A program made the translations under genes and the position numbers. Below, piece after piece: positions 2,385 through 29,732 of a stretch of DNA of 64,000 nucleotides (positions are counted from its first letter, which is position 1; the number at the start of each line of letters is the position of its first letter). Origin of the DNA: Escherichia coli. GTDB lineage: Bacteria > Pseudomonadota > Gammaproteobacteria > Enterobacterales > Enterobacteriaceae. The notes beneath the pieces are model-generated. The model searched no databases, was not told the origin of the DNA, and saw only the letters and a program-made list of their open reading frames with translations. The stretch is from NCBI RefSeq assembly GCF_965641715.1, contig NZ_OZ282455.1; one strand, 5' to 3'.

Positions 2385-2606
2385 ATGAACTATGCCGGAC
2401 ACGAAAAACTTCGCGCCGAAGTGGCGGAGGTGGCCAATGCCATGTGTGACCTGCGTACAACCATGAATGAGATGGAGCGGCGGTACAGCTTTAATGCTGA
2501 CACCCTGCCGGAACGTCTGGTGCGTCAGACGTTGTTTCGCGCAAACCGCCTCCTGATGGAGGCATATACCGAAATTCTTGAACTGGATGCGTGCTTCAAA
2601 GATTAA
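2385..2606 (+). CDS. hypothetical protein (73 aa)
   Basis: Track ORF; start overlaps stop of methyltransferase gene (TAAATG), suggesting translational coupling. Confidence 0.45.
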   Translation: MNYAGHEKLRAEVAEVANAMCDLRTTMNEMERRYSFNADTLPERLVRQTLFRANRLLMEAYTEILELDACFKD

Positions 2607-2618
2607 GGAGGAGACGAA

Positions 2619-3053
2619 ATGTACGGAACATGCGAAACGCTCTGCCGTGAGCTGGCAGCAAAGTATCCGGGAAACACGCCGCTGATGCTGCTTATCTGGT
2701 CCCCGGAAGAGATTCAGGCACTGGCCGACGGTATGGAAATTTCTCTGACCGATCATGAAATCAGGACTGTCCTGGCGCACCTGGAGGACATCCCGGAAGA
2801 CCAGCGGACTGAGTCCGGTATTTCTTCCGCCGCGGCGATGGAGATTATCAGCAACGTGAGCGAAAACCGCCTGGTGACCGTCCCTGCTGAACTGCTGGCG
2901 TCCCTGATTCAGACCGCTGAACAGGCACTGTGGAAACGTGAATGGGCCGCCCGTGATAACGGCCTTGCCGTCCCGGAATGTGTTACCCGCCGTCAGGCAG
3001 TGATTAATCAGGCCCGCACCCTGCTGAAAAACAACACACACGAAAACAACTGA
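2619..3053 (+). CDS. hypothetical protein (144 aa), paralog of 4762..5184
   Basis: Track ORF with AGGAGG-like SD; shares SLTD.E..TV...L.D and VTVPA motifs with ORF 4762..5184. Confidence 0.6.
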
Positions 3054-3103
3054 TGTTATCGCCGCCTGCCCTGCGGGCGGCGATACAGGGAGAACGCTTA
3101 ATC

Positions 3104-3874
3104 ATGAACAAAACGCTGAATGCACTGGTTTGTCGTCACGCCCGTAACCTGCTGCTGGCGCAGGGCTGGCCGGAAGAGACGGATGTTGACCAGCGAAATC
3201 CGAACTATCCGGGCTGGATCAGCATTTACGTGCGGCTGGATGCGCCCCGGCTGGCGACGTTACTTATCAACCGTCACGGCGGCGTACTGCCGCCGCTCCT
3301 GGCCTCCGCCATTCAGAGACTGACCGGAACCGGGGCGGAACTGGTACTGTCCGGCAGTCAGTGGCAATCGCTGCCGGTACTTCCGGCAGACGGAACGCAG
3401 GTGTCTTTCCCGTATGCCGGAGAATGGCTGACCGAAGACGAAATCAGGGCTGTTCTTGATGCGGTGCACGATGCGGTACGAAGCATCTGTTACCAGGTGG
3501 CAGACGATGCGCGGCGTATCCGTGCGGCGCTGACCACCACCGGTCAGACGTTGCTGACCCGCCAGACGCGCCGCTTTCGCCTGGTCGTGAAGGAAAGCGA
3601 TCACCCCTGCTGGCTCGATGAAGATGACGAAAACCTGCCCGTGGTGCTCGATGCCATCGTGAACCGGGGAGCACGTTTTTCGTCGGTGGAAATGTACCTG
3701 GTCAGCGATTGTATTGAGCATATCCTGTCCAGTGGGCTGGCCTGCGATGTGCTGCGTATACCTGATGAATCGCCCCGCCGCTGGTTTGACCGTGGTGTTC
3801 TGCGGGAGGTGGTCCGGGAAGCCCGGACCGAAATCCGCAGCATGGCGGATGCCCTGGCAAAAATCCGGAAATGA
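3104..3874 (+). CDS. hypothetical protein (256 aa)
   Basis: Track ORF 3053..3874; ATG at 3104 follows a stem-loop (3056..3082) and a GGGAGA SD-like sequence. Confidence 0.55.
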
Positions 3875-22206: not shown

Positions 22207-23269
22207 GGCCAGACTCGCTGTCGGTGGTTTTCAGGAATAAATTAAGCGTGCCAGTTTCCTGCAGAATTCCTGTAGGCAGATGCCAGCCGGTGTCGGACAG
22301 CACCCATGGGGTACCGGCAAATCCGAACTTACGGAAGGCGACATTGTTAACATCAATCGCAGCTCTGGCTGCTTTCAGGCATGTTTCATCTGCAGGCGTT
22401 GTTTCTTCTGATGGCGTCATCATTCCGTTATCTGCGGAATACAGTCGGTGCCAGCCGGCAGCACGTTTCTGAGCATCTTTTTCACACAGCAGTGGTGCCA
22501 CACGGTCGGTGGATTCCTCTCCACCAATAACTGAAACCGGGTAGATAACGACATTGAAGTCGCTGGCCAGGCGTTTTAAGGCCGGCTCCAGAAGTCTGCA
22601 GTTAGGACAGGCAGGATCGAGAAATGCGAACAGGGTTCGTTCATGACCGGATGACAGGTTGATGGTAAACATGCCCCGATCGGCGTTCCGCTTCAGAACA
22701 GTAGCCAGATTATGTCGCGCAGCTGCGGCTTCCGGATTTTTGCTTGTGATTGTTTTCTCCGGGACCTGGACGTCTTTTTTCGGGGGAACCGGGAGTTGAA
22801 TGCCTTCATTTAATGGCACAGTGTGATTCAGGTGAGGGGGTAGCAGTCGTGGCTCACCTGCTGTCTGTACTGCTTCAGGCGTTGTATCATCCCAGAATAC
22901 ACGATCAACATAGCGGAACAGAGAGAAGCCAATCGTTGCCATTACGAACAGCACAACGCTGGCGATTATGCCACGGAACAAAGGTGTTCTGCTGAAGCGG
23001 CGTTCCATCAGATATTCAAGGCGCAGGCAGGAATCAATAGCTGTAAGTATCTGGTCAGCGTTATGCTCCTGTTTATCAATCAGGACGGTTTCTCTGTTAC
23101 GGGTGCCCATGGCGTCAAAGGCTATATGAATCAGTTGATTATTTCGTGTTACCAGCCCTGACAGGGCATCCCGTGGAAGGACGGCAATAATTTCTGTCCT
23201 GCCATCCGGCCAGATTGCCTGCACGGAAATATGTTTTGCAATGCGTGTTGCAAAGTACTCGATTGTCAT
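22199..23269 (-). CDS. trbB: TrbB thioredoxin-fold disulfide isomerase-like protein
   Basis: 356 aa; CPNC active-site motif; N-terminal TM segment. Confidence 0.8.
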   Translation of the reverse strand: MTIEYFATRIAKHISVQAIWPDGRTEIIAVLPRDALSGLVTRNNQLIHIAFDAMGTRNRETVLIDKQEHNADQILTAIDSCLRLEYLMERRFSRTPLFRGIIASVVLFVMATIGFSLFRYVDRVFWDDTTPEAVQTAGEPRLLPPHLNHTVPLNEGIQLPVPPKKDVQVPEKTITSKNPEAAAARHNLATVLKRNADRGMFTINLSSGHERTLFAFLDPACPNCRLLEPALKRLASDFNVVIYPVSVIGGEESTDRVAPLLCEKDAQKRAAGWHRLYSADNGMMTPSEETTPADETCLKAARAAIDVNNVAFRKFGFAGTPWVLSDTGWHLPTGILQETGTLNLFLKTTDSESGHE

Positions 23270-23287
23270 TTTCAGTTCTCCGGATAA

Positions 23288-24496
23288 TCAGAATTCGTTG
23301 TCTGTAGCAGGTGTGCGGGGCAGGATGTCGTCGGTGAGGGACCAGTTGGTCAGGATGCGGCGTTTCCGGTCGCGATCTGGTTGTGGTTCATCCCAGATAA
23401 GACCGAGACTGAGCATATCCCGCCGTAAGCCTTCCACCGCTTCATCAACACAGGGTTCAGGGCAGGGAAGACCAAAACGCATGGCTTCGGCCTCTGCACG
23501 TGCAACGGCCACCACGCCAGCGCCTTCAATAAATCCTTTCGTGGTATTGGCGCGGTGTAATGCATAAAACAGCGTCCTGTCCACGCCTTTCAGCCAAATC
23601 CAGTTGGGTGGCGTAAGCCGCAGGTCATGTGCATACAGCCAGACCAGCCCACTGCGGACGTAGCGATGTTGTTTCAGCCATTGCTGTGCTCCGTTGCTTT
23701 TAATCACTCTCTGGAAAGCTGATTTGGCCAGTGAATAAACAGGGGTACAGAATTTCCCACTGTCCCGTTTGCTTTTAATTCTGCATGAGAGGTTCAGTGT
23801 ATCCATGAGCTTTAATGCTGCCTTACGATCATCCAGGAAATACTGAAGACCAAATATGGCAAAGAGCGCTTTTTCATGTGGTGCCATGTCTTTCCAGGAC
23901 GTTAAAGGTTTACCCAACTGGGCCATGAAACATCGTCTTGCAGCTGCAACATCGAGCTGCATATTGGTGATGAGAGTATGCTGCTCGACAAATGCTTCCG
24001 GGGTGAGAGCAACCCGCCGTTCAGGTCGTTTGCCACCATGAAAGAGTTTTTCCGGATCACCATCTGCCAGTACAGGGGCGATAGCAGGGGACAACGAAGC
24101 AAAGATGTGTGGCAGTCGGGTAATATCTACTGGTCTGCGGGTGAAACGGCTTTGTCCCGGATGTTGATACCATTCCCACAAACACCAGAGTGTCACAGGT
24201 AAGAGGTACATCCACAGAATACCTATGGTCTGCTCCATGACGTTAACCCACTGGCTATAGCTTATGTTGGCGGCGTTGTTACCGGTCATGGCAAGCAGGT
24301 TGTATCGTGGTGCTGCATAGTTATGAAATGGCCCCCAGTCGACCAGTCCCCATAAGGTATGAAGAATCAGGCAGCTGGCGTAAACCACTTCCGGCAAGAA
24401 TAACCATATGACGAATAGCAGCAGGATAAGAAGGACACCAACAGCGCCCCATATCTGCATAGGATCTTCTGCGACAGGCTGTCGATTGTAAGACAT
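23288..24496 (-). CDS. trbA: conjugal transfer membrane protein TrbA
   Basis: 402 aa; N-terminal hydrophobic segments; synteny. Confidence 0.75.
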   Translation of the reverse strand: MSYNRQPVAEDPMQIWGAVGVLLILLLFVIWLFLPEVVYASCLILHTLWGLVDWGPFHNYAAPRYNLLAMTGNNAANISYSQWVNVMEQTIGILWMYLLPVTLWCLWEWYQHPGQSRFTRRPVDITRLPHIFASLSPAIAPVLADGDPEKLFHGGKRPERRVALTPEAFVEQHTLITNMQLDVAAARRCFMAQLGKPLTSWKDMAPHEKALFAIFGLQYFLDDRKAALKLMDTLNLSCRIKSKRDSGKFCTPVYSLAKSAFQRVIKSNGAQQWLKQHRYVRSGLVWLYAHDLRLTPPNWIWLKGVDRTLFYALHRANTTKGFIEGAGVVAVARAEAEAMRFGLPCPEPCVDEAVEGLRRDMLSLGLIWDEPQPDRDRKRRILTNWSLTDDILPRTPATDNEF

Positions 24497-24648
24497 GACA
24501 AAGTCTCCATTTCTGGAATTTAAATCAAACGGAAAGGTTAAAAATTTATTTGCAGGCGATAAGAGCTAACCAGAGGAATTAGCCGTGCGATAAAAGGATT
24601 GTTGCAGATACGAAAGTCGTTAGAATAGCTGCGGGCGCTTGAGGCTGT

Positions 24649-24933
24649 ATGCCGAAAGCGTTTTGTGGACGGTATACAGCAGAAAGCCCCTGGAGATTTT
24701 TTTATCAATCAACCAAGGGCTCTACTGTAATGCCTAGACAACATTATAGTAGCCCGATAACCGCCGTAAGGCAATGGAGGGGCTATGATGCCACAGCGAA
24801 CGTTTTTAATGATGTTAATCGTCATCTGTGTGACGATTCTGTGTTTTGTCTGGATGGTGAGGGATTCGCTTTGCGTACTCCGGCTCCAGCAGGGAAACAC
24901 AGTGCTTGTGGCAACGTTAGCCTACGAAGTTAA
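24649..24933 (+). CDS. pndC: PndC-like (Mok-equivalent) overlapping reading frame
   Basis: Track ORF overlapping pndA in another frame, as in hok/mok loci; true start probably internal. Confidence 0.4.
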   Translation: MPKAFCGRYTAESPWRFFYQSTKGSTVMPRQHYSSPITAVRQWRGYDATANVFNDVNRHLCDDSVFCLDGEGFALRTPAPAGKHSACGNVSLRS

Positions 24934-24940
24934 ACGTTAA
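24788..24940 (+). CDS. pndA: PndA, Hok/Gef-family type I toxin
   Basis: 50-aa ORF found by hand (MPQRTFLMMLIVICVTILCFVWMVRDSLCVLRLQQGNTVLVATLAYEVKR); Hok-family hallmarks SLC…G…LAYE; GGAGGGG SD. Confidence 0.8.
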   Translation: MPQRTFLMMLIVICVTILCFVWMVRDSLCVLRLQQGNTVLVATLAYEVKR

Positions 24941-25011
24941 CGGGCAACACGGCGGCAGGTTTTCTGCCGCCGCTTTGTTGCGAAGGCTGACCTCATTGCG
25001 CCCTTTCTTCT

Positions 25012-25263
25012 TCAATGAAGCGTATCCGGTATTGTTTCATTTCCCCTGAAGCCGATTAGCTCCAGCCGAATGCCTTTGCCATCGGGGGCCACGTTCTGCA
25101 TTTCGCAGATACCACGTCGGGTCATGAGTGTGAAGGCTGTCATTGCCAGCATGGCTAACGCGTTTTCCTCGCTTCCGCTGCGTTTCTCGAGAGCATCGGC
25201 AATTTCTTCTATGCTCCCCACCTGAAAGCAAGAGTCGAATTCTTTACTCCACTTTTCTGACAT
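25012..25263 (-). CDS. hypothetical protein (83 aa)
   Basis: Track ORF; ATG with GAGAG SD. Confidence 0.45.
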   Translation of the reverse strand: MSEKWSKEFDSCFQVGSIEEIADALEKRSGSEENALAMLAMTAFTLMTRRGICEMQNVAPDGKGIRLELIGFRGNETIPDTLH

Positions 25264-25416
25264 CGGATTTTCTCTCTGTATTTATGGGTAGTTATCGAAC
25301 TGAATGTGCCAGTTTTTTCAGGAGACGGCAAAGTTGAGATGATTGGTTCTGATTCAGAGCATGAGTTTCCTCGGTGTGACGGGCATGTCGGGCGGATTTT
25401 GAGAAACAACAGATGT

Positions 25417-25503
25417 AAAAAAACCGACTGGTGAGGTCGGTTTTTTTACTGTTCCGTTACAGAGTGGGTGGCCCTGACCGGAGGAAATCTCTTTTCAACT
25501 AAC
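25417..25503 (-). ncRNA. candidate trans-acting antitoxin sRNA (about 87 nt)
   Basis: - strand promoter TTGCTA-17 nt-TATTAT (about 25510..25540); 5' 24 nt complementary to 25667..25690; terminator A7-CCGAC-loop-GTCGG-T7 at 25417..25447. Confidence 0.45.
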
Positions 25504-25761
25504 GTTCTTATAATAGCGAGCTGTTCATTTGATAGCAACCATCCTTATAATCCGCAGGTTAGCTCTGTCTGGCGACACTTCTGCCGTGATATCCATCGGG
25601 ACTATGGATGCAAGATTTTAAGTCCTGGCTGAACAAACAGGTGGTGCTGTGTTCAGTGCTCTGGCAGGAGGAAGTCTCTTTTCAACTAACACTGAAAGTG
25701 CCGTTGTGACAGGCAATGTAAGAGTAAGCAACGGTGATTTCCTCCAGTGATGGAGAAGCGG

Positions 25762-25857
25762 ATGATTAATCTGTTAATCATCGTTCTCAGGGCAGTAGTT
25801 GCCGTTGCAAACGCGCTGATTGCTGTTCTGGAACTGATCCGGGAACTTGTCGACTGA
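25762..25857 (+). CDS. candidate type I toxin, 31-aa hydrophobic peptide
   Basis: ORF found by hand: MINLLIIVLRAVVAVANALIAVLELIRELVD; GGAG 8 nt upstream; long 5' UTR holding the sRNA target site; hairpin after stop. Confidence 0.45.
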   Translation: MINLLIIVLRAVVAVANALIAVLELIRELVD

Positions 25858-25921
25858 TAAGCCTGGAAACGTAACTAAGGGCAGGGAGTTACCGCTTCCT
25901 GCCCTTTAACAAAAAGAGATC

Positions 25922-26098
25922 TCACGTTAAAAATTTGTACCCTTCTTTAACTTCCAGTGCCTGCTCCTTTGACTCAAACATCAGTCTTGTTTTCCCGGGA
26001 ACACCCCATGAAATGTATTCAACATCTATCCACCATTTTCCATATTCTTCATATGGCCCGGATATTACTTTTTTGACAAAGGCGTCTACCAGATTCAT
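25922..26098 (-). CDS. hypothetical small protein (58 aa)
   Basis: Inside track ORF 25922..26206; ATG at 26098 follows AAGGAAAA; AT-rich context. Confidence 0.35.
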   Translation of the reverse strand: MNLVDAFVKKVISGPYEEYGKWWIDVEYISWGVPGKTRLMFESKEQALEVKEGYKFLT

Positions 26099-26483
26099 TA
26101 TTTTTTCCTTTTTGTGTTGAAAATAATTAATGCCAGAGCACAGCGAAAATAATGAATGCGCTGGCTGTGATAATTGCGATTTTCTCCCATATGATATTTT
26201 TCTCATGGGGGATTCTACGGAGATTATTTCTTCGCATTGAGATACCGGTATTCATGTTTTATCTTGGACTTTTGTTTTGTTGTCTGTCTGGCAGGCTGTT
26301 CTGCGCCCGTTTGTGACAAGGTTAGCTTATGGGGTTAAATGGTCACGGACATCATGCGGACGGTTCCCTGTCACATGCCATCTGGTTTTTTCATTCAAAT
26401 TGAGAGATATTGCTAAGTTGAGTCGCTTGCGATAGTGGACTCCTGTTTGTAAGTGAGTGCCATTGTTTATTTCATGAAGAGGA

Positions 26484-26699
26484 TTGATTATGAGCATGCC
26501 TCCTGCGATAGCTAATACTTTCTTGTTTGAAATGATGAAGAGTAAATCAAAAGACGTTACACTTGCTGCGATCTATGCATTAGGTGAAGGCCGGTGTCAG
26601 GCGGAGAACATTACTCGTGAATTACATAGATTGAGTCAAAGTGATGATATGGAAATAAAAATTGCTGCGATTAAAGCACTTGGTCGAATTTATCGGTAA
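26484..26699 (+). CDS. hypothetical small protein (71 aa) with HEAT-like repeats
   Basis: Track ORF with GAGGA SD; two AAI.ALG helical repeats; AT-rich. Confidence 0.35.
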   Translation: MIMSMPPAIANTFLFEMMKSKSKDVTLAAIYALGEGRCQAENITRELHRLSQSDDMEIKIAAIKALGRIYR

Positions 26700-26770
26700 C
26701 GGCATAAGTTATCTGTTGTAATGAACAAAAGCCGGCTCATTTGAACCGGCTGTTATGGAGGGAGCTTATC

Positions 26771-27445
26771 TTAAAATACTTCGGCTACAGGCATGCCTGC
26801 AATCTGCTCCCACTCCTTACGCTTCTCCTGAATTAGGCGAGGAAAGTCGACAGGGTAATCATATCCTCTTTCTGCCATTGCATGCATTGTATCCGCCATC
26901 ATTTTGGGATGGATGCATCCTGACGGAATTGAGACCATTGGTATATTTATGTATTTTGTATAAATCTCTAGTGTCTTGGCGTCGGTCACAGTGCGTGTGA
27001 AGTTGTCAATGTCAAAGCCGATAATATCCATTATATTTCCAGGGTAAGCACGAGCATACAGCATAGTGCCTTTTTTGGTATCCACGCCAAAATAGACGCC
27101 CTGAGTAAAAGACAGTCCCTCATATTCTTTGTCAGGTGAATAAAAACCGGTGTTTTTTATCTCCGCGACAATTTTTTTTATTTTGTCTTTTCTTGAGCTT
27201 GCTCGGGAATACATCAATATTGCAGGGGCAATTAGTAAAAACAGACAGACGCAAGTATAAATATAATCTTCTTGCGTCACATATCTTGAAGATGTAATGG
27301 AGAGCACTCCGAAAAGAATAAAAATGGATAACACTGGTATGCTTATGAAATATATAAATCTAAGGGCGTAATATAATGTCCACCAAGCAGGATATCTATT
27401 GATTGTTTTTACCATTTGCATAATAAACCCTCCATAAACACTCAT
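26771..27445 (-). CDS. excA: entry exclusion protein ExcA
   Basis: 224 aa inner-membrane protein immediately downstream of traY as in R64; strongly AT-rich. Confidence 0.7.
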
Positions 27446-27494
27446 CGATATTTTAATGCGATTGAGTGTTTATGGCAAGGTTGTTTTATTAAAA

Positions 27495-29732
27495 TTATCC
27501 TTTTATTCCATCTTTATTATCATCCTTTGTGACATTTTTTAGTCTGTCCTCTCTAACTCCAGGGCTGTGTCTAATATTTCTATTAGAACCTGCAAAAATA
27601 TCTTTTACTGATGAGGTGAGGTTGCCAAGAGTATTTACACCATCTCTACCACCCAAGAAATTGATAACATGGTCAGGAAGATATGCTTGTAAAGCAAATA
27701 TTGCAGCTACAGACGTTGTACACATACGGGCGTAAATTAGCAGGAACCCGGCAAGGCTGAATATCCCTGTTAATGATTTTACCTGTACGTTAACTAGTGC
27801 TGCGCCAAACAGTGAGTTTAATATTGTGCCGACGGCAATGATGGCGACAGAGGCAAAAAAGAAACCGAATACCATGAGAGGTGGTCTTATCATGCTGTCA
27901 ATTAAGTATATATATCCGTAAGCTGCTCGACTTCCTCTGTCCTCTGATGTTCCTAGATGTGTTGCTGCCCACAGAGGCCCGGCGGTGCATCCTATTAATA
28001 CGCTTACTATCCAGTTCCCAATGCCTGTCATCCAGAAAATGAATGGTATAAATGGTAGGTAAATTGATAAGGAAAAACCCGCACAAAACAACAGGAACAA
28101 CAAGAAATATATTGGGGGAGCTGCAGCATCCAGCAGAGCAACAAATCCTTTAGGTAATCCAGAGAACAAATTAACAGCCTTTCCGAAAATAGAGTTATCA
28201 CCCATTGTCGCGAGAACTCTGACAGTTGTATATCCTGTCCAGAGAATTTCTGTTGTACCCAATGTATAATCGCCGATGTTTTTCATCTTAATTAATGGGT
28301 TAACTTGGTTGCTGGTTGTTCCTGTTCCTGACCATTCAGTAGCAGCTTGGTTTGTCCATTTTAATATGGTTGGCGCTATACTTTTCATGACCACACTTTG
28401 TGGGTCTGTGCTATTAGCTGCATTACTTTCATCTTGAGTTGTTATCGTTCCTATCGTTGGAGTATATGTGGAGTTCTGCAATTGAGTCTTGTATGCCCCC
28501 ATAACAGCACTAAATAAATCAGTATCGCCAACTTCCCCAAGTGATGACATTGAAGTTACAGCTGGAGCTCGGTCTGCCAGCTCTGCCAGACGTTGGTTAG
28601 CAGTGGCAAAGGTCTGATACCACGCGCCAAGCGTCACCCATCCATAGGTTGTGAGATAAGACTTGAGAGCTTCTTTCCTGGATTGTTCTCCGTTATCAAT
28701 AGGTAATGATTTTTGTACAGCACGTTCATACTCGTCGGCTGCTCTCTGAATCCGTGTCTCGATATCCGGCAATGTTCCGTTGCCAGAATTTCTTTTTTCC
28801 AGAAATGTTGTCACAAACTCACTGGCAGCGTTGTCCATGTCGCTAATCATATTATCCATGGCTGCACGTTGTGCTGAGATAACACCGCTGTATTCGTTTT
28901 TACTGAAGGGATTAAAGAATTTTCCAATCGTCGATTGATCTGTTGTTCCGTTTCCTTCTACTGACAGGCTGGCTGAACCACAGATACCGCTGCCATTGGA
29001 TACCGTGACAGTGTAATTACCACTGGCGGTTTTAGCTGATTCTGTCATCAGTGAAGTCGAGGATTTGACCGTCTGATTAAAATCATTTAGTCCTGCGTTA
29101 ACCGCATACTTACACAGTTCCATTTCAAAAATGCCACGCGCTGCTGTTCGTGTGGATGCCTGAACTGGCTGTACAGTCATTGAATAACCATTTGCGATAT
29201 TATCAGCGGCAAGTTGCACCATCACATTGGCGGACCCAACCCCCATTATCGATGCGCCCCATAACATAATGAGCTGAGCGATACTCCAGCCATTTCCGGT
29301 TGGAACGATCATCAGAAAACCTGCAACGACACTCAGTGTGCCGACGATATCGCGTCCGGTGCTGAATACCTGTCCCTGATGCCCCGAACGCACAACATGA
29401 CGGATACCAATGAACATAAACCAGACAACGGCAAGTACGGCGATGATACTGTTGAACGCCCCGAACATGCTTCCGATCAGAGTGGGGGCGCTGGTTGACA
29501 GTGGATTGGTGACTACATCACCGAATATCGTGACCAGCGCCTGACGGGACAGATCGTCAGGATTGGTTGCGGCAGACACAATATCCTGATAGGTCACTGA
29601 AGCCATTGCCGGCAGTGAGGATATAGCAAGGCCTGCACAGAGTGCGCGAAGTAAAATTTTCACAGTAACTCCGGAATAGAATTGCGTATGGGCAAAGGCC
29701 ACACAGGATTTAATTAAGGGGGATGGCGACAT
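27495..29732 (-). CDS. traY: conjugal transfer integral membrane protein TraY
   Basis: 745 aa polytopic membrane protein; size and position match R64 TraY. Confidence 0.85.
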   Translation of the reverse strand: MSPSPLIKSCVAFAHTQFYSGVTVKILLRALCAGLAISSLPAMASVTYQDIVSAATNPDDLSRQALVTIFGDVVTNPLSTSAPTLIGSMFGAFNSIIAVLAVVWFMFIGIRHVVRSGHQGQVFSTGRDIVGTLSVVAGFLMIVPTGNGWSIAQLIMLWGASIMGVGSANVMVQLAADNIANGYSMTVQPVQASTRTAARGIFEMELCKYAVNAGLNDFNQTVKSSTSLMTESAKTASGNYTVTVSNGSGICGSASLSVEGNGTTDQSTIGKFFNPFSKNEYSGVISAQRAAMDNMISDMDNAASEFVTTFLEKRNSGNGTLPDIETRIQRAADEYERAVQKSLPIDNGEQSRKEALKSYLTTYGWVTLGAWYQTFATANQRLAELADRAPAVTSMSSLGEVGDTDLFSAVMGAYKTQLQNSTYTPTIGTITTQDESNAANSTDPQSVVMKSIAPTILKWTNQAATEWSGTGTTSNQVNPLIKMKNIGDYTLGTTEILWTGYTTVRVLATMGDNSIFGKAVNLFSGLPKGFVALLDAAAPPIYFLLFLLFCAGFSLSIYLPFIPFIFWMTGIGNWIVSVLIGCTAGPLWAATHLGTSEDRGSRAAYGYIYLIDSMIRPPLMVFGFFFASVAIIAVGTILNSLFGAALVNVQVKSLTGIFSLAGFLLIYARMCTTSVAAIFALQAYLPDHVINFLGGRDGVNTLGNLTSSVKDIFAGSNRNIRHSPGVREDRLKNVTKDDNKDGIKG

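Follow-up and report, generated by a model that had tools for sequence, protein, structure and literature searches.

Among described type I toxin–antitoxin systems, the closest to the locus analyzed here are dinQ/agrB of E. coli K-12 (PMC3567139, PMC5066626) and its relatives on plasmids. The 5′ UTR of the dinQ mRNA contains four elements. In the +1 mRNA, which is inert, element 1 pairs with element 2 and element 3 with element 4, whereas the active +44 mRNA has the 2:3 pairing (PMC5066626). The antitoxin RNA, agrB, binds dinQ from G88 to A119, closes the hairpin that holds the Shine–Dalgarno (SD) sequence, and triggers cleavage by RNase III (PMC5066626). The dinQ-like (dql) genes of Enterobacteriaceae chromosomes and natural plasmids were defined by Kristiansen et al. 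in 2016 and split into dqlA and dqlB (PMC5066626). In 2025, the DqlB/agrB module of pOXA-48 (IncL) was reported to encode a toxic peptide, to be rescued by agrB in a manner dependent on base pairing, as established with compensatory mutants, and to kill cells that had lost the plasmid (PMC12365149). The IncX3 dqlB/agrB copy of pOXA-484, also reported in 2025, was toxic and stabilized a test plasmid (PMC12317039). A study of the IncI1 plasmid pTF2 names dqlB and reports a proteome in which DqlB was undetected (PMC12211044), as would be expected of a repressed toxin, though this provides no positive evidence.

Here, we compare these systems with a locus lying between a pnd locus and excA. It is very probably a dqlB/agrB type I toxin–antitoxin module in its IncI1 (R64-type) version, belongs to the plasmid-borne branch of the dinQ/agrB family of E. 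coli, and most likely acts in post-segregational killing (addiction), a function that we infer for the IncI1 copy from its relatives.

Results

The Locus and Its Annotation

The window, by which we mean the whole 64,000-nucleotide stretch of E. coli DNA that was analyzed (contig NZ_OZ282455.1), matches plasmid R64 (NC_005014.1) at 100% identity from 25400 to 25920, as it does many other IncI1 plasmids, and the locus is identical or at least 99% identical in 481 plasmid records. On R64, RefSeq annotates dqlB at the same position, between the Hok/Gef gene and excA, and it does so on hundreds of IncI1 plasmids (protein WP_001303310.1). The pOXA-48 study gives the frequency of dqlB on IncI1 plasmids as 67.4% (PMC12365149). 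A preliminary description, made from the sequence without database searches, had taken such a module to be undescribed for IncI plasmids, and in this it was mistaken. The dqlB/agrB module is already known, the IncI1 plasmid group included, because the dql family has been named, dqlB is annotated on IncI1 plasmids, and the IncL and IncX3 members have been tested. The same is not true of its RNA partner: in a RefSeq E. coli plasmid record that we inspected, whose feature table includes RNA genes, the agrB-like sRNA has no annotation despite passing the Rfam threshold. What the present analysis provides beyond existing annotation is this unannotated sRNA, together with comparative support for the translational switch in plasmid copies and for their loss of SOS control.

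The Toxin Gene

The toxin gene and its neighbor lie at the following positions.

24633-24940: hok/sok-type pnd locus, the neighboring module
25762-25857, plus strand: dqlB open reading frame (ATG at 25762, TGA at 25857), encoding a 31-aa hydrophobic single-helix peptide, MINLLIIVLRAVVAVANALIAVLELIRELVD

The 96-nt reading frame that had been proposed to encode a 31-aa membrane peptide is present, and its product has a GRAVY of 1.89. The peptide matches the NCBIfam model NF041473.1, "DinQ-like type I toxin DqlB", with 67 bits (cut-off 35), residues 1-31 aligning with profile positions 1-31. Against the DinQ equivalog, NF041472.1, it scores 20.7 bits, below the cut-off of 30, and it is thus of the DqlB and not the DinQ type. 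The LELIR motif that the preliminary description noted as shared with DinQ is common to both peptides, with 11 of 17 residues identical by BLASTP (E = 9e-05 in a single comparison). Across 14 distinct dqlB sequences, pN/pS is 0.158 and variable columns are distributed 11/4/21 over the codon positions; the reading frame is under purifying selection. We also considered a longer frame starting from ATG 25750 or GTG 25747 and rejected it; these upstream starts are absent from L004, L005, L007, and L009-L017 among the compared loci, while the MINLL/MVNLL start is kept in all. A GGAG does precede the start codon, at 25752-25755, but its spacer is 6 nt and not the 8 nt first given, a minor correction.

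The AgrB-Like sRNA

On the opposite strand and upstream of the toxin gene lies an sRNA gene with its own signals.

25415-25503, minus strand: AgrB-family antitoxin sRNA, about 88-89 nt (Rfam RF02891)
25415-25449, minus strand: intrinsic terminator of the sRNA, with a 14-bp stem, a 7-nt loop, and a U run
25510-25538, minus strand: sRNA promoter, TTGCTA (25538-25533), 17-nt spacer, TATTAT (25515-25510)

The minus strand from 25502 to 25415 matches the Rfam AgrB family (RF02891) with 55.3 bits, above the gathering score of 40, over model positions 1-84 of 84, with an E value of 1.3e-6 for the whole window. This match is single; the whole-window Rfam scan returned no second agrB copy. The 5′ end is either 25503 (G) or 25502 (U), the latter being homologous to the annotated K-12 agrB start. 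When folded, the 89-nt sRNA leaves 21 nt at its 5′ end free, ahead of a small stem-loop and the terminator (−27 kcal/mol, z = −3.3), and nucleotides 1-24 (up to 33) constitute the recognition tail. The sRNA gene is divergent from the toxin gene, lies 5′ of it, and does not overlap it, with the sRNA 5′ end at 25503, the mRNA +1 at about 25558, and the two promoters back to back between them. Nearly all of 23 agrB-like genes that were compared by eye have a TTGCA/TTGACA-type −35 box and a TAnnAT −10 box at corresponding positions before a G start.

These results agree with the preliminary description, which had read a sigma70-like minus-strand promoter (TTGCTA-17-TATTAT, found at 25538-25510), a strong Rho-independent terminator (the 14-bp stem at 25449-25415, followed by a T run), and an sRNA of about 87 nt, whose ends and strand fit the full-length AgrB match at 25502-25415. 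Membership in the zorO/orzO family was also considered and rejected: OrzO (RF02083) scores 33.6 bits, well short of its gathering score of 60, and the similarity is mostly in the terminator hairpin.

Pairing of the sRNA with Its Target

The sRNA is matched to a segment of the toxin mRNA leader through a direct repeat.

25658-25690, plus strand: sRNA target, which includes the core of element 2, GGAGGAAGUC (25667-25676)

The 24-nt block GGAGGAARTCTCTTTTCAACTAAC is found at just two places in the 64-kb window, 25480-25503 and 25667-25690, where none would be expected (100 shuffles). With 88% identity, the repeat can be followed over 33 nt (25471-25503 and 25658-25690). As the preliminary description had it, the sRNA can pair with the mRNA over 24 contiguous nucleotides, one of them a G-U pair; overall, 32 of 37 positions pair, and the core duplex has an energy of −56 kcal/mol. 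The target spans +101 to +133 of the dqlB mRNA, a position homologous to dinQ G88-A119.

To compare the pairing across lineages, we used diverged loci from IncI-gamma/K1, IncK2/Z, IncX1, X3, X4, X5, IncFIA, IncHI2, IncL/M, and untyped plasmids, along with K-12 dinQ. The number of loci differs by test: 14 for pair covariation, 15 plasmid loci for the Rfam and LexA searches, 16 for the switch helices, and 17 for cognate runs. Of the 15 plasmid loci, 12 have an Rfam AgrB gene upstream of dqlB; in the remaining three (one untyped and two IncL/M) an upstream direct repeat gives 23-24 contiguous complementary nucleotides. The recognition block varies between lineages, and the sRNA and the target vary together. 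In the 14-locus comparison, pairing involves 96.7% of cells (78.9% in shuffles), and 17 of the 24 pairs have changed on both sides; none of 500 shuffles reached these values. Because the sRNA gene and its target form a direct repeat, part of this co-variation could stem from gene conversion instead of selection for pairing. Sliding the register between sRNA and target lowers pairing to 41-46%. Cognate combinations in the 17 loci pair over a mean of 23.2 of 24 positions with a run of 21.4 nt, as compared to 17.7 of 24 and a run of 7.4 nt for non-cognate ones. The preliminary description had proposed looking in related plasmids for conservation of the reading frame and of the complementarity, and both are found there, in the pN/pS of 0.158 and in the co-varying pairs.

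The dqlB mRNA and Its Switch Elements

The mRNA has the following parts, in the order of their positions.

25524-25551, plus strand: dqlB promoter, TTCATT (25524-25529), 16-nt spacer, TATAAT (25546-25551), overlapping the sRNA promoter back to back
25558-25909, plus strand: dqlB mRNA of about 350 nt with a 204-nt 5′ UTR; +1 is G25558 by homology to the mapped dinQ +1
25570-25590, plus strand: element 1, a 5′ segment able to pair with element 2 (boundaries approximate)
25629-25656, plus strand: conserved stem-loop CUGAACA / UGUUCAG; 7 of 7 pairs changed on both sides, 95.5% of cells paired
25701-25734, plus strand: conserved stem-loop CCGUUGU / GCAACGG; 3 of 7 pairs changed on both sides, 93.8% of cells paired
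25736-25746, plus strand: element 3, GAUUUCCUCCA, which pairs with element 2 or with the SD (anti-SD)
25751-25755, plus strand: element 4 and Shine–Dalgarno (U-GGAG), forming a 5-bp hairpin with 25742-25746
25877-25909, plus strand: dqlB terminator hairpin with arms 25877-25888 and 25895-25906 (12 bp, 92% complementary), then UUU; 5 of 12 pairs changed on both sides

The whole transcription unit aligns with dinQ and with 14 plasmid homologues from the −10 box to the terminator, and the −10 box and +1 of dqlB align with those of dinQ. The numbering of dinQ (PMC5066626) was mapped onto the K-12 locus (L002) and from there onto the window, which places the SD at +195 to +198 and the start codon at +205. 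The 12-nt arms of the terminator are those of the hairpin that the preliminary description had seen after the stop codon. The stem-loops at 25629-25656 and 25701-25734 presumably correspond to SL2 and SL4, respectively, of the dinQ model.

The 5′ UTR has four elements with mutually exclusive 1:2, 2:3, and 3:4 pairings, and these are cognate-specific. In the window, the best duplex of elements 1 and 2 has an energy of −18.8 kcal/mol, and element 2 (GGAGGAAGUC, 25667-25676) with element 3 (GAUUUCCUCC, 25736-25745) has −17.5 kcal/mol. Over 16 loci, the cognate mean is −20.8 kcal/mol for 1:2, against −15.6 for non-cognate combinations, and −16.9 kcal/mol for 2:3, against −11.8; in each case 0 of 20,000 permutations were as good. 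The 3:4 SD hairpin forms in 16 of 16 loci at −5 to −10 kcal/mol when each sequence is folded individually. Its stem reads UCCCUU/AAGGGA in L004 and CUCCA/UGGAG in the window, so that both arms differ and the pairing is kept. Counting pairs by column on alignment A1 gave only 68.8% of cells paired for this hairpin because indels in the loop shift the register, and per-sequence folding was therefore used instead. In addition, the last 5 nt of the target (25686-25690) can engage the mRNA 5′ end (25558-25562) in the a/a′ interaction, with 2 of 4 pairs co-varying. Taken from sequence comparison, these data directly support the operation of a dinQ-like translational switch in the plasmid copies.

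Folding by itself did not demonstrate that the SD opens. Partition-function folding was applied to the full-length, 5′-truncated, and target-blocked mRNA, and element 3 was seen to change its partner: blocking the target in silico shifted the probability of 2:3 from 0.99 to 0 and that of 3:4 from 0.01 to 0.98. For the full-length mRNA, thermodynamic folding gives the 2:3 state, with an alternative fold only 1 kcal/mol worse, and in the folded "open" 2:3 state the SD is largely paired with an invariant CUCU at 25659-25662. As a positive control, partition-function folding of dinQ +44 gave a 2:3 probability of 0.02, failing to reproduce the state that is open in experiments. Consequently, we have not used folding as evidence on SD accessibility.

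Orphan agrB Genes in Related Plasmids

While comparing related plasmids, we observed AgrB-family genes that stand without a toxin gene. CP090291.1 (L018) and NZ_CP024481.1 have three AgrB-family genes and no dqlB in the same slot. The dqlB unit beside the third agrB has been deleted from just upstream of the −10 box to just past the terminator, and the second agrB copy retains only the first ~45 nt of a dqlB mRNA; all three orphans have their promoters and terminators intact. The three-gene array is covered to at least 80% in 315 plasmid records, so that about 300 IncI-type plasmids have no toxin gene but three orphan agrB genes, one for each specificity class. The agrB recognition blocks and their dqlB targets fall into three or more classes without cross-pairing between them, and each CP090291.1 orphan pairs with one of three I-complex dqlB classes, at energies comparable to those of the cognate sRNAs.

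L018a: −54 and −60 kcal/mol with its matching class; cognate sRNAs of that class, −67 and −58
L018b: −51 and −63 kcal/mol with its matching class; cognate sRNAs of that class, −56 and −70
L018c: −55 kcal/mol with its matching class; cognate sRNAs of that class, −56

The IncK2/Z plasmid pSH276-2 has its cognate agrB and a second copy, whose block is identical at 24 of 24 positions to the R64 dqlB target and unmatched to its own dqlB. This pattern looks like antitoxin-only immunity to the toxins of competitors. A tentative extension, which we consider possible but would not favor, is that the R64 module is one player in a contest of addiction and anti-addiction among I-complex plasmids, in which the orphan arrays would protect the host when a competitor plasmid is displaced. 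A full-text literature search found no description of orphan antitoxins acting in anti-addiction for type I (RNA antitoxin) systems, and the observation of orphan agrB arrays may be new, though it concerns related loci and not the window. Such arrays could matter for how IncI-complex resistance plasmids displace one another.

Discussion

The preliminary description had proposed a type I toxin–antitoxin module with the dinQ/agrB architecture, and this reading stands: the peptide passes the DqlB model, the sRNA passes the AgrB gathering score, and the mRNA aligns with dinQ. A reading of raw sequence without tools thus rebuilt a real RNA-regulated toxin module, with its strand, ends, and target correct. 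The family membership of both genes, the conservation and covariation of every pairing, and the purifying selection on the reading frame were computed here from the sequences.

How the module might work can be proposed by analogy. Transcription of dqlB from an unregulated sigma-70 promoter (+1 at about 25558) would give an mRNA of about 350 nt. In the full-length mRNA, element 1 and the GUUAG 5′ end could pair with the element 2 region; with this region occupied by element 1, element 3 would be free to sequester the SD in a hairpin, and the mRNA would consequently be inert. Trimming of the 5′ end would strip element 1, allowing element 2 (GGAGGAAGUC) to pair with element 3 (GAUUUCCUCC), so that the SD is released and the peptide is made. 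While the plasmid is present, the 88-nt divergent AgrB-like sRNA would use its free 5′ tail to pair with 24-33 nt including element 2, which would put element 3 back on the SD and produce a long duplex that RNase III could cut. In this scheme, the structural switch and the RNase III cleavage are carried over from experiments with dinQ. Once the plasmid is lost, the unstable sRNA would no longer be replenished, leftover mRNA would be translated, and the 31-aa peptide would insert into the inner membrane, leading to cell death. Experiments with pOXA-48 and pOXA-484 are likewise the source for the toxicity, for the rescue by agrB, including that by compensatory mutants, and for the death of cells upon plasmid loss; for the IncI1 copy, this killing, the processing step, and the half-lives of the RNAs are inferred from relatives.

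Addiction need not be the only use of such a module, and it could be intact yet have another main role, such as competition between related plasmids or abortive infection of phages. We regard this as improbable. The diversification of the recognition blocks into classes that do not cross-pair would be in keeping with such a role, as would the related plasmids whose extra or orphan agrB genes match the dqlB of other plasmids. Other type I modules have been reported to exclude phages, which counts in the same direction. However, direct experiments with the IncL and IncX3 members have demonstrated that cells are killed when the plasmid is lost (PMC12365149, PMC12317039), and roles in competition or defense and a role in addiction are not mutually exclusive. 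A function in addiction remains our preferred reading, but a hok/sok-type pnd module is already present about 800 bp away, so the share of dqlB in plasmid stability could be small.

Regulation is a second point on which the plasmid copy might be judged by its chromosomal homologue. If dqlB resembled dinQ in this respect, it would be an SOS-induced stress or persistence toxin, triggered through LexA by DNA damage and not by plasmid loss; this we consider very unlikely. The homologue dinQ is indeed under LexA control, and a LexA-like site (ACCTGTTTGTTCAGCCAGGA, heterology index 11.64) has been reported 119 nt upstream of dqlB on pTF2 (PMC12211044). The same 20-mer occurs in the window at 25622-25641. 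However, the dinQ operator overlaps the −10 box, and the homologous position in the window reads TCC...CAG. A LexA box of the form CTG-N10-CAG between −60 and +20 was found in 0 of 15 plasmid dqlB promoters, the window included, while it is present at −15 in dinQ. The LexA-like 20-mer instead lies inside the transcript, from +65 to +84. Its CTG and CAG ends fall, by eye, within family-conserved CCUG and CRGG segments that could pair in the RNA, and its center overlaps the 5′ arm of the co-varying stem-loop at 25629-25656. Furthermore, DqlB did not rise in an SOS-hyperinduced strain (PMC12211044). With no operator at the promoter and the published pTF2 site falling within the transcript, we rejected LexA as the main regulator, and the plasmid copies appear to have dropped SOS control.

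That the IncI1 copy is a decaying relic, recognizable but non-working, is scarcely credible: the toxin gene is gone from about 300 related plasmids, and the toxin is thus dispensable for that backbone, but here the reading frame is intact, as are the SD and the promoters and terminators of both genes, the sRNA has 24 contiguous pairs with its target, pN/pS is 0.158, and the locus is identical or at least 99% identical in 481 plasmid records.

Comparison with Known Systems

The tisB/istR-1 system, which the preliminary description had offered as an alternative model, resembles the locus in having a divergent, non-overlapping sRNA that acts on the 5′ leader of an mRNA that encodes a small membrane toxin and requires 5′ processing to become active. 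There is no sequence relationship; searches at E ≤ 1 returned no TisB family in NCBIfam and no IstR family in Rfam (positions 23000-28000), and membership was consequently rejected.

The neighboring pnd locus is, like dqlB/agrB, a type I addiction module with a small membrane toxin, an inert full-length mRNA that is activated by processing, and an unstable antisense RNA. However, its toxin belongs to the unrelated Hok/Gef family. The pnd antisense RNA is also cis-encoded and overlaps its mRNA; the agrB-like gene, by contrast, is located outside the transcription unit of dqlB. The mRNA of hok/sok-type modules is activated by trimming at the 3′ end, as opposed to the 5′ trimming proposed for dqlB.

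With K-12 dinQ/agrB (PMC3567139, PMC5066626), the locus shares mRNA homology that runs from the −10 box as far as the terminator and includes the four-element switch and the a/a′ interaction. The sRNAs are homologous as well: both have a free 5′ tail and the same terminator, and their targets are at homologous positions. The differences concern the peptide, which is of the 27-aa DinQ type in K-12 and of the 31-aa DqlB type in the window; the promoter, which has a LexA operator in dinQ and is without one in the window copy; and the setting, which is chromosomal with both agrA and agrB in K-12 and plasmid-borne with a single sRNA gene here.

The modules of pOXA-48 (IncL) and pOXA-484 (IncX3) are separated from the window copy by the recognition block: cross-pairing of the window copy is poor, covering 13-16 of 24 positions with the IncL/M sRNAs and 20 of 24, with a longest run of 6, with the IncX3 sRNA. 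The IncL/M sRNAs are too diverged for an Rfam AgrB match, unlike the window sRNA. The genomic slot differs as well: on IncL the module sits between repA and trbC, and the window copy occupies the transfer region, with pnd and excA on either side. The modules are alike in having a 31-aa peptide (MINLLI..LELIR..D) of the same NCBIfam equivalog, a divergent, non-overlapping sRNA gene upstream, the same target segment in the 5′ UTR, and the same mRNA architecture.

Orphan and non-cognate agrB genes

In two IncI-type plasmids, the slot between pnd and excA holds three genes of the AgrB family and lacks a dqlB toxin gene. Two further plasmids carry a second agrB copy mismatched to the dqlB of its own plasmid.

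agrB genes without a matching toxin
CP090291.1 (L018), 1141-1847: three-gene AgrB-family array
NZ_CP024481.1 (L019), 2501-3281: three-gene AgrB-family array
pSH276-2 (L006, IncK2/Z), 1499-1586: second agrB copy
IncX1 locus (L008), 1250-1337: second agrB copy

Promoters and terminators are intact in all three genes of the array. Each orphan gene corresponds to a different specificity class of dqlB (the R64/L005 type, the L003/L006 type, and the L004 type), and its fit to that class is roughly as good as that of the cognate sRNAs. In PLSDB, 315 records cover the three-agrB array at 80% or more; it may function as an anti-addiction array. As for the second copies, the recognition block on pSH276-2 is identical at 24/24 positions to the dqlB target of the window (R64). 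The 37-nt recognition block of the IncX1 copy is that of the cognate agrB of an IncHI2 locus (L013), which pairs at 24/24 positions with the target of its own locus.

Features of the dqlB transcript and its sRNA

Features in the window
25499-25503, minus strand: GUUAG, 5' end of the sRNA
25558-25562, plus strand: GUUAG, 5' end of the dqlB mRNA
25622-25641: LexA-like 20-mer, as on pTF2, inside the dqlB transcript (+65 to +84)
25655-25663: motif GUGCUCUGG, directly upstream of element 2
25761-25782: perfect 9-bp hairpin, GAUGAUUAA / UUAAUCAUC, enclosing the dqlB start codon and first codons

The sRNA and the dqlB mRNA begin with the same GUUAG. Each 5' end is complementary to one and the same CUAAC (25686-25690), so that the sRNA mimics the 5' end of the mRNA itself. 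In other lineages the sRNA 5' end, the mRNA 5' end, and the target end change together (GUCAG/CUGAC, GUUGG/CCAAC, GUCUA/UAGAC, and GUCAA/UUGAC).

The only variable positions in GUGCUCUGG are base 1 and the C of its GCU, and each varies in 2 of the 16 loci. In the predicted fold of the 2:3 conformation, its CUCU pairs with the Shine–Dalgarno GGAG (25752-25755) at a probability of about 0.75. If real, this pairing would complicate a simple "open SD" picture. The start-codon hairpin is paired in every predicted fold and is kept in homologs.

The LexA-like 20-mer has been published for the IncI1 plasmid pTF2, with a heterology index of 11.64 (PMC12211044). Its CTG and CAG ends lie within CCUG/CRGG segments. 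By eye, these segments show family-wide conservation and could pair in the RNA, so the 20-mer may have arisen as a side effect of RNA structure.

Neighborhood and annotation

Genes around dqlB/agrB in the window
24633-24940: pnd module of the hok/sok type (134 bits for sok in Rfam; Hok/Gef ORF of 51 aa at 24785-24940)
25012-25263, minus strand: conserved hypothetical gene, 83 aa (WP_001291964.1)
25922-26098, minus strand: conserved hypothetical gene, 58 aa (WP_001054897.1)

The pnd module lies about 800 bp upstream of dqlB/agrB, so two unrelated type I toxin–antitoxin modules are almost adjacent on one plasmid. Both hypothetical genes flank dqlB/agrB; the 58-aa gene accompanies dqlB in the IncI and IncK loci, and those of IncX and IncL plasmids have dqlB without it. 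The AgrB-like sRNA (window 25415-25503; L001 3036-3124) scores above Rfam's gathering score and is unannotated in the inspected RefSeq E. coli plasmid record, whose feature table lists RNA genes.

Comparison with dinQ/agrB of E. coli K-12

At the position of the dqlB start-codon hairpin, dinQ has a shorter stem, GAUUG/CAAUC, in which both arms differ. The second agrB copies of pSH276-2 and the IncX1 locus have a chromosomal parallel in agrA of the K-12 dinQ locus, which is likewise non-cognate.
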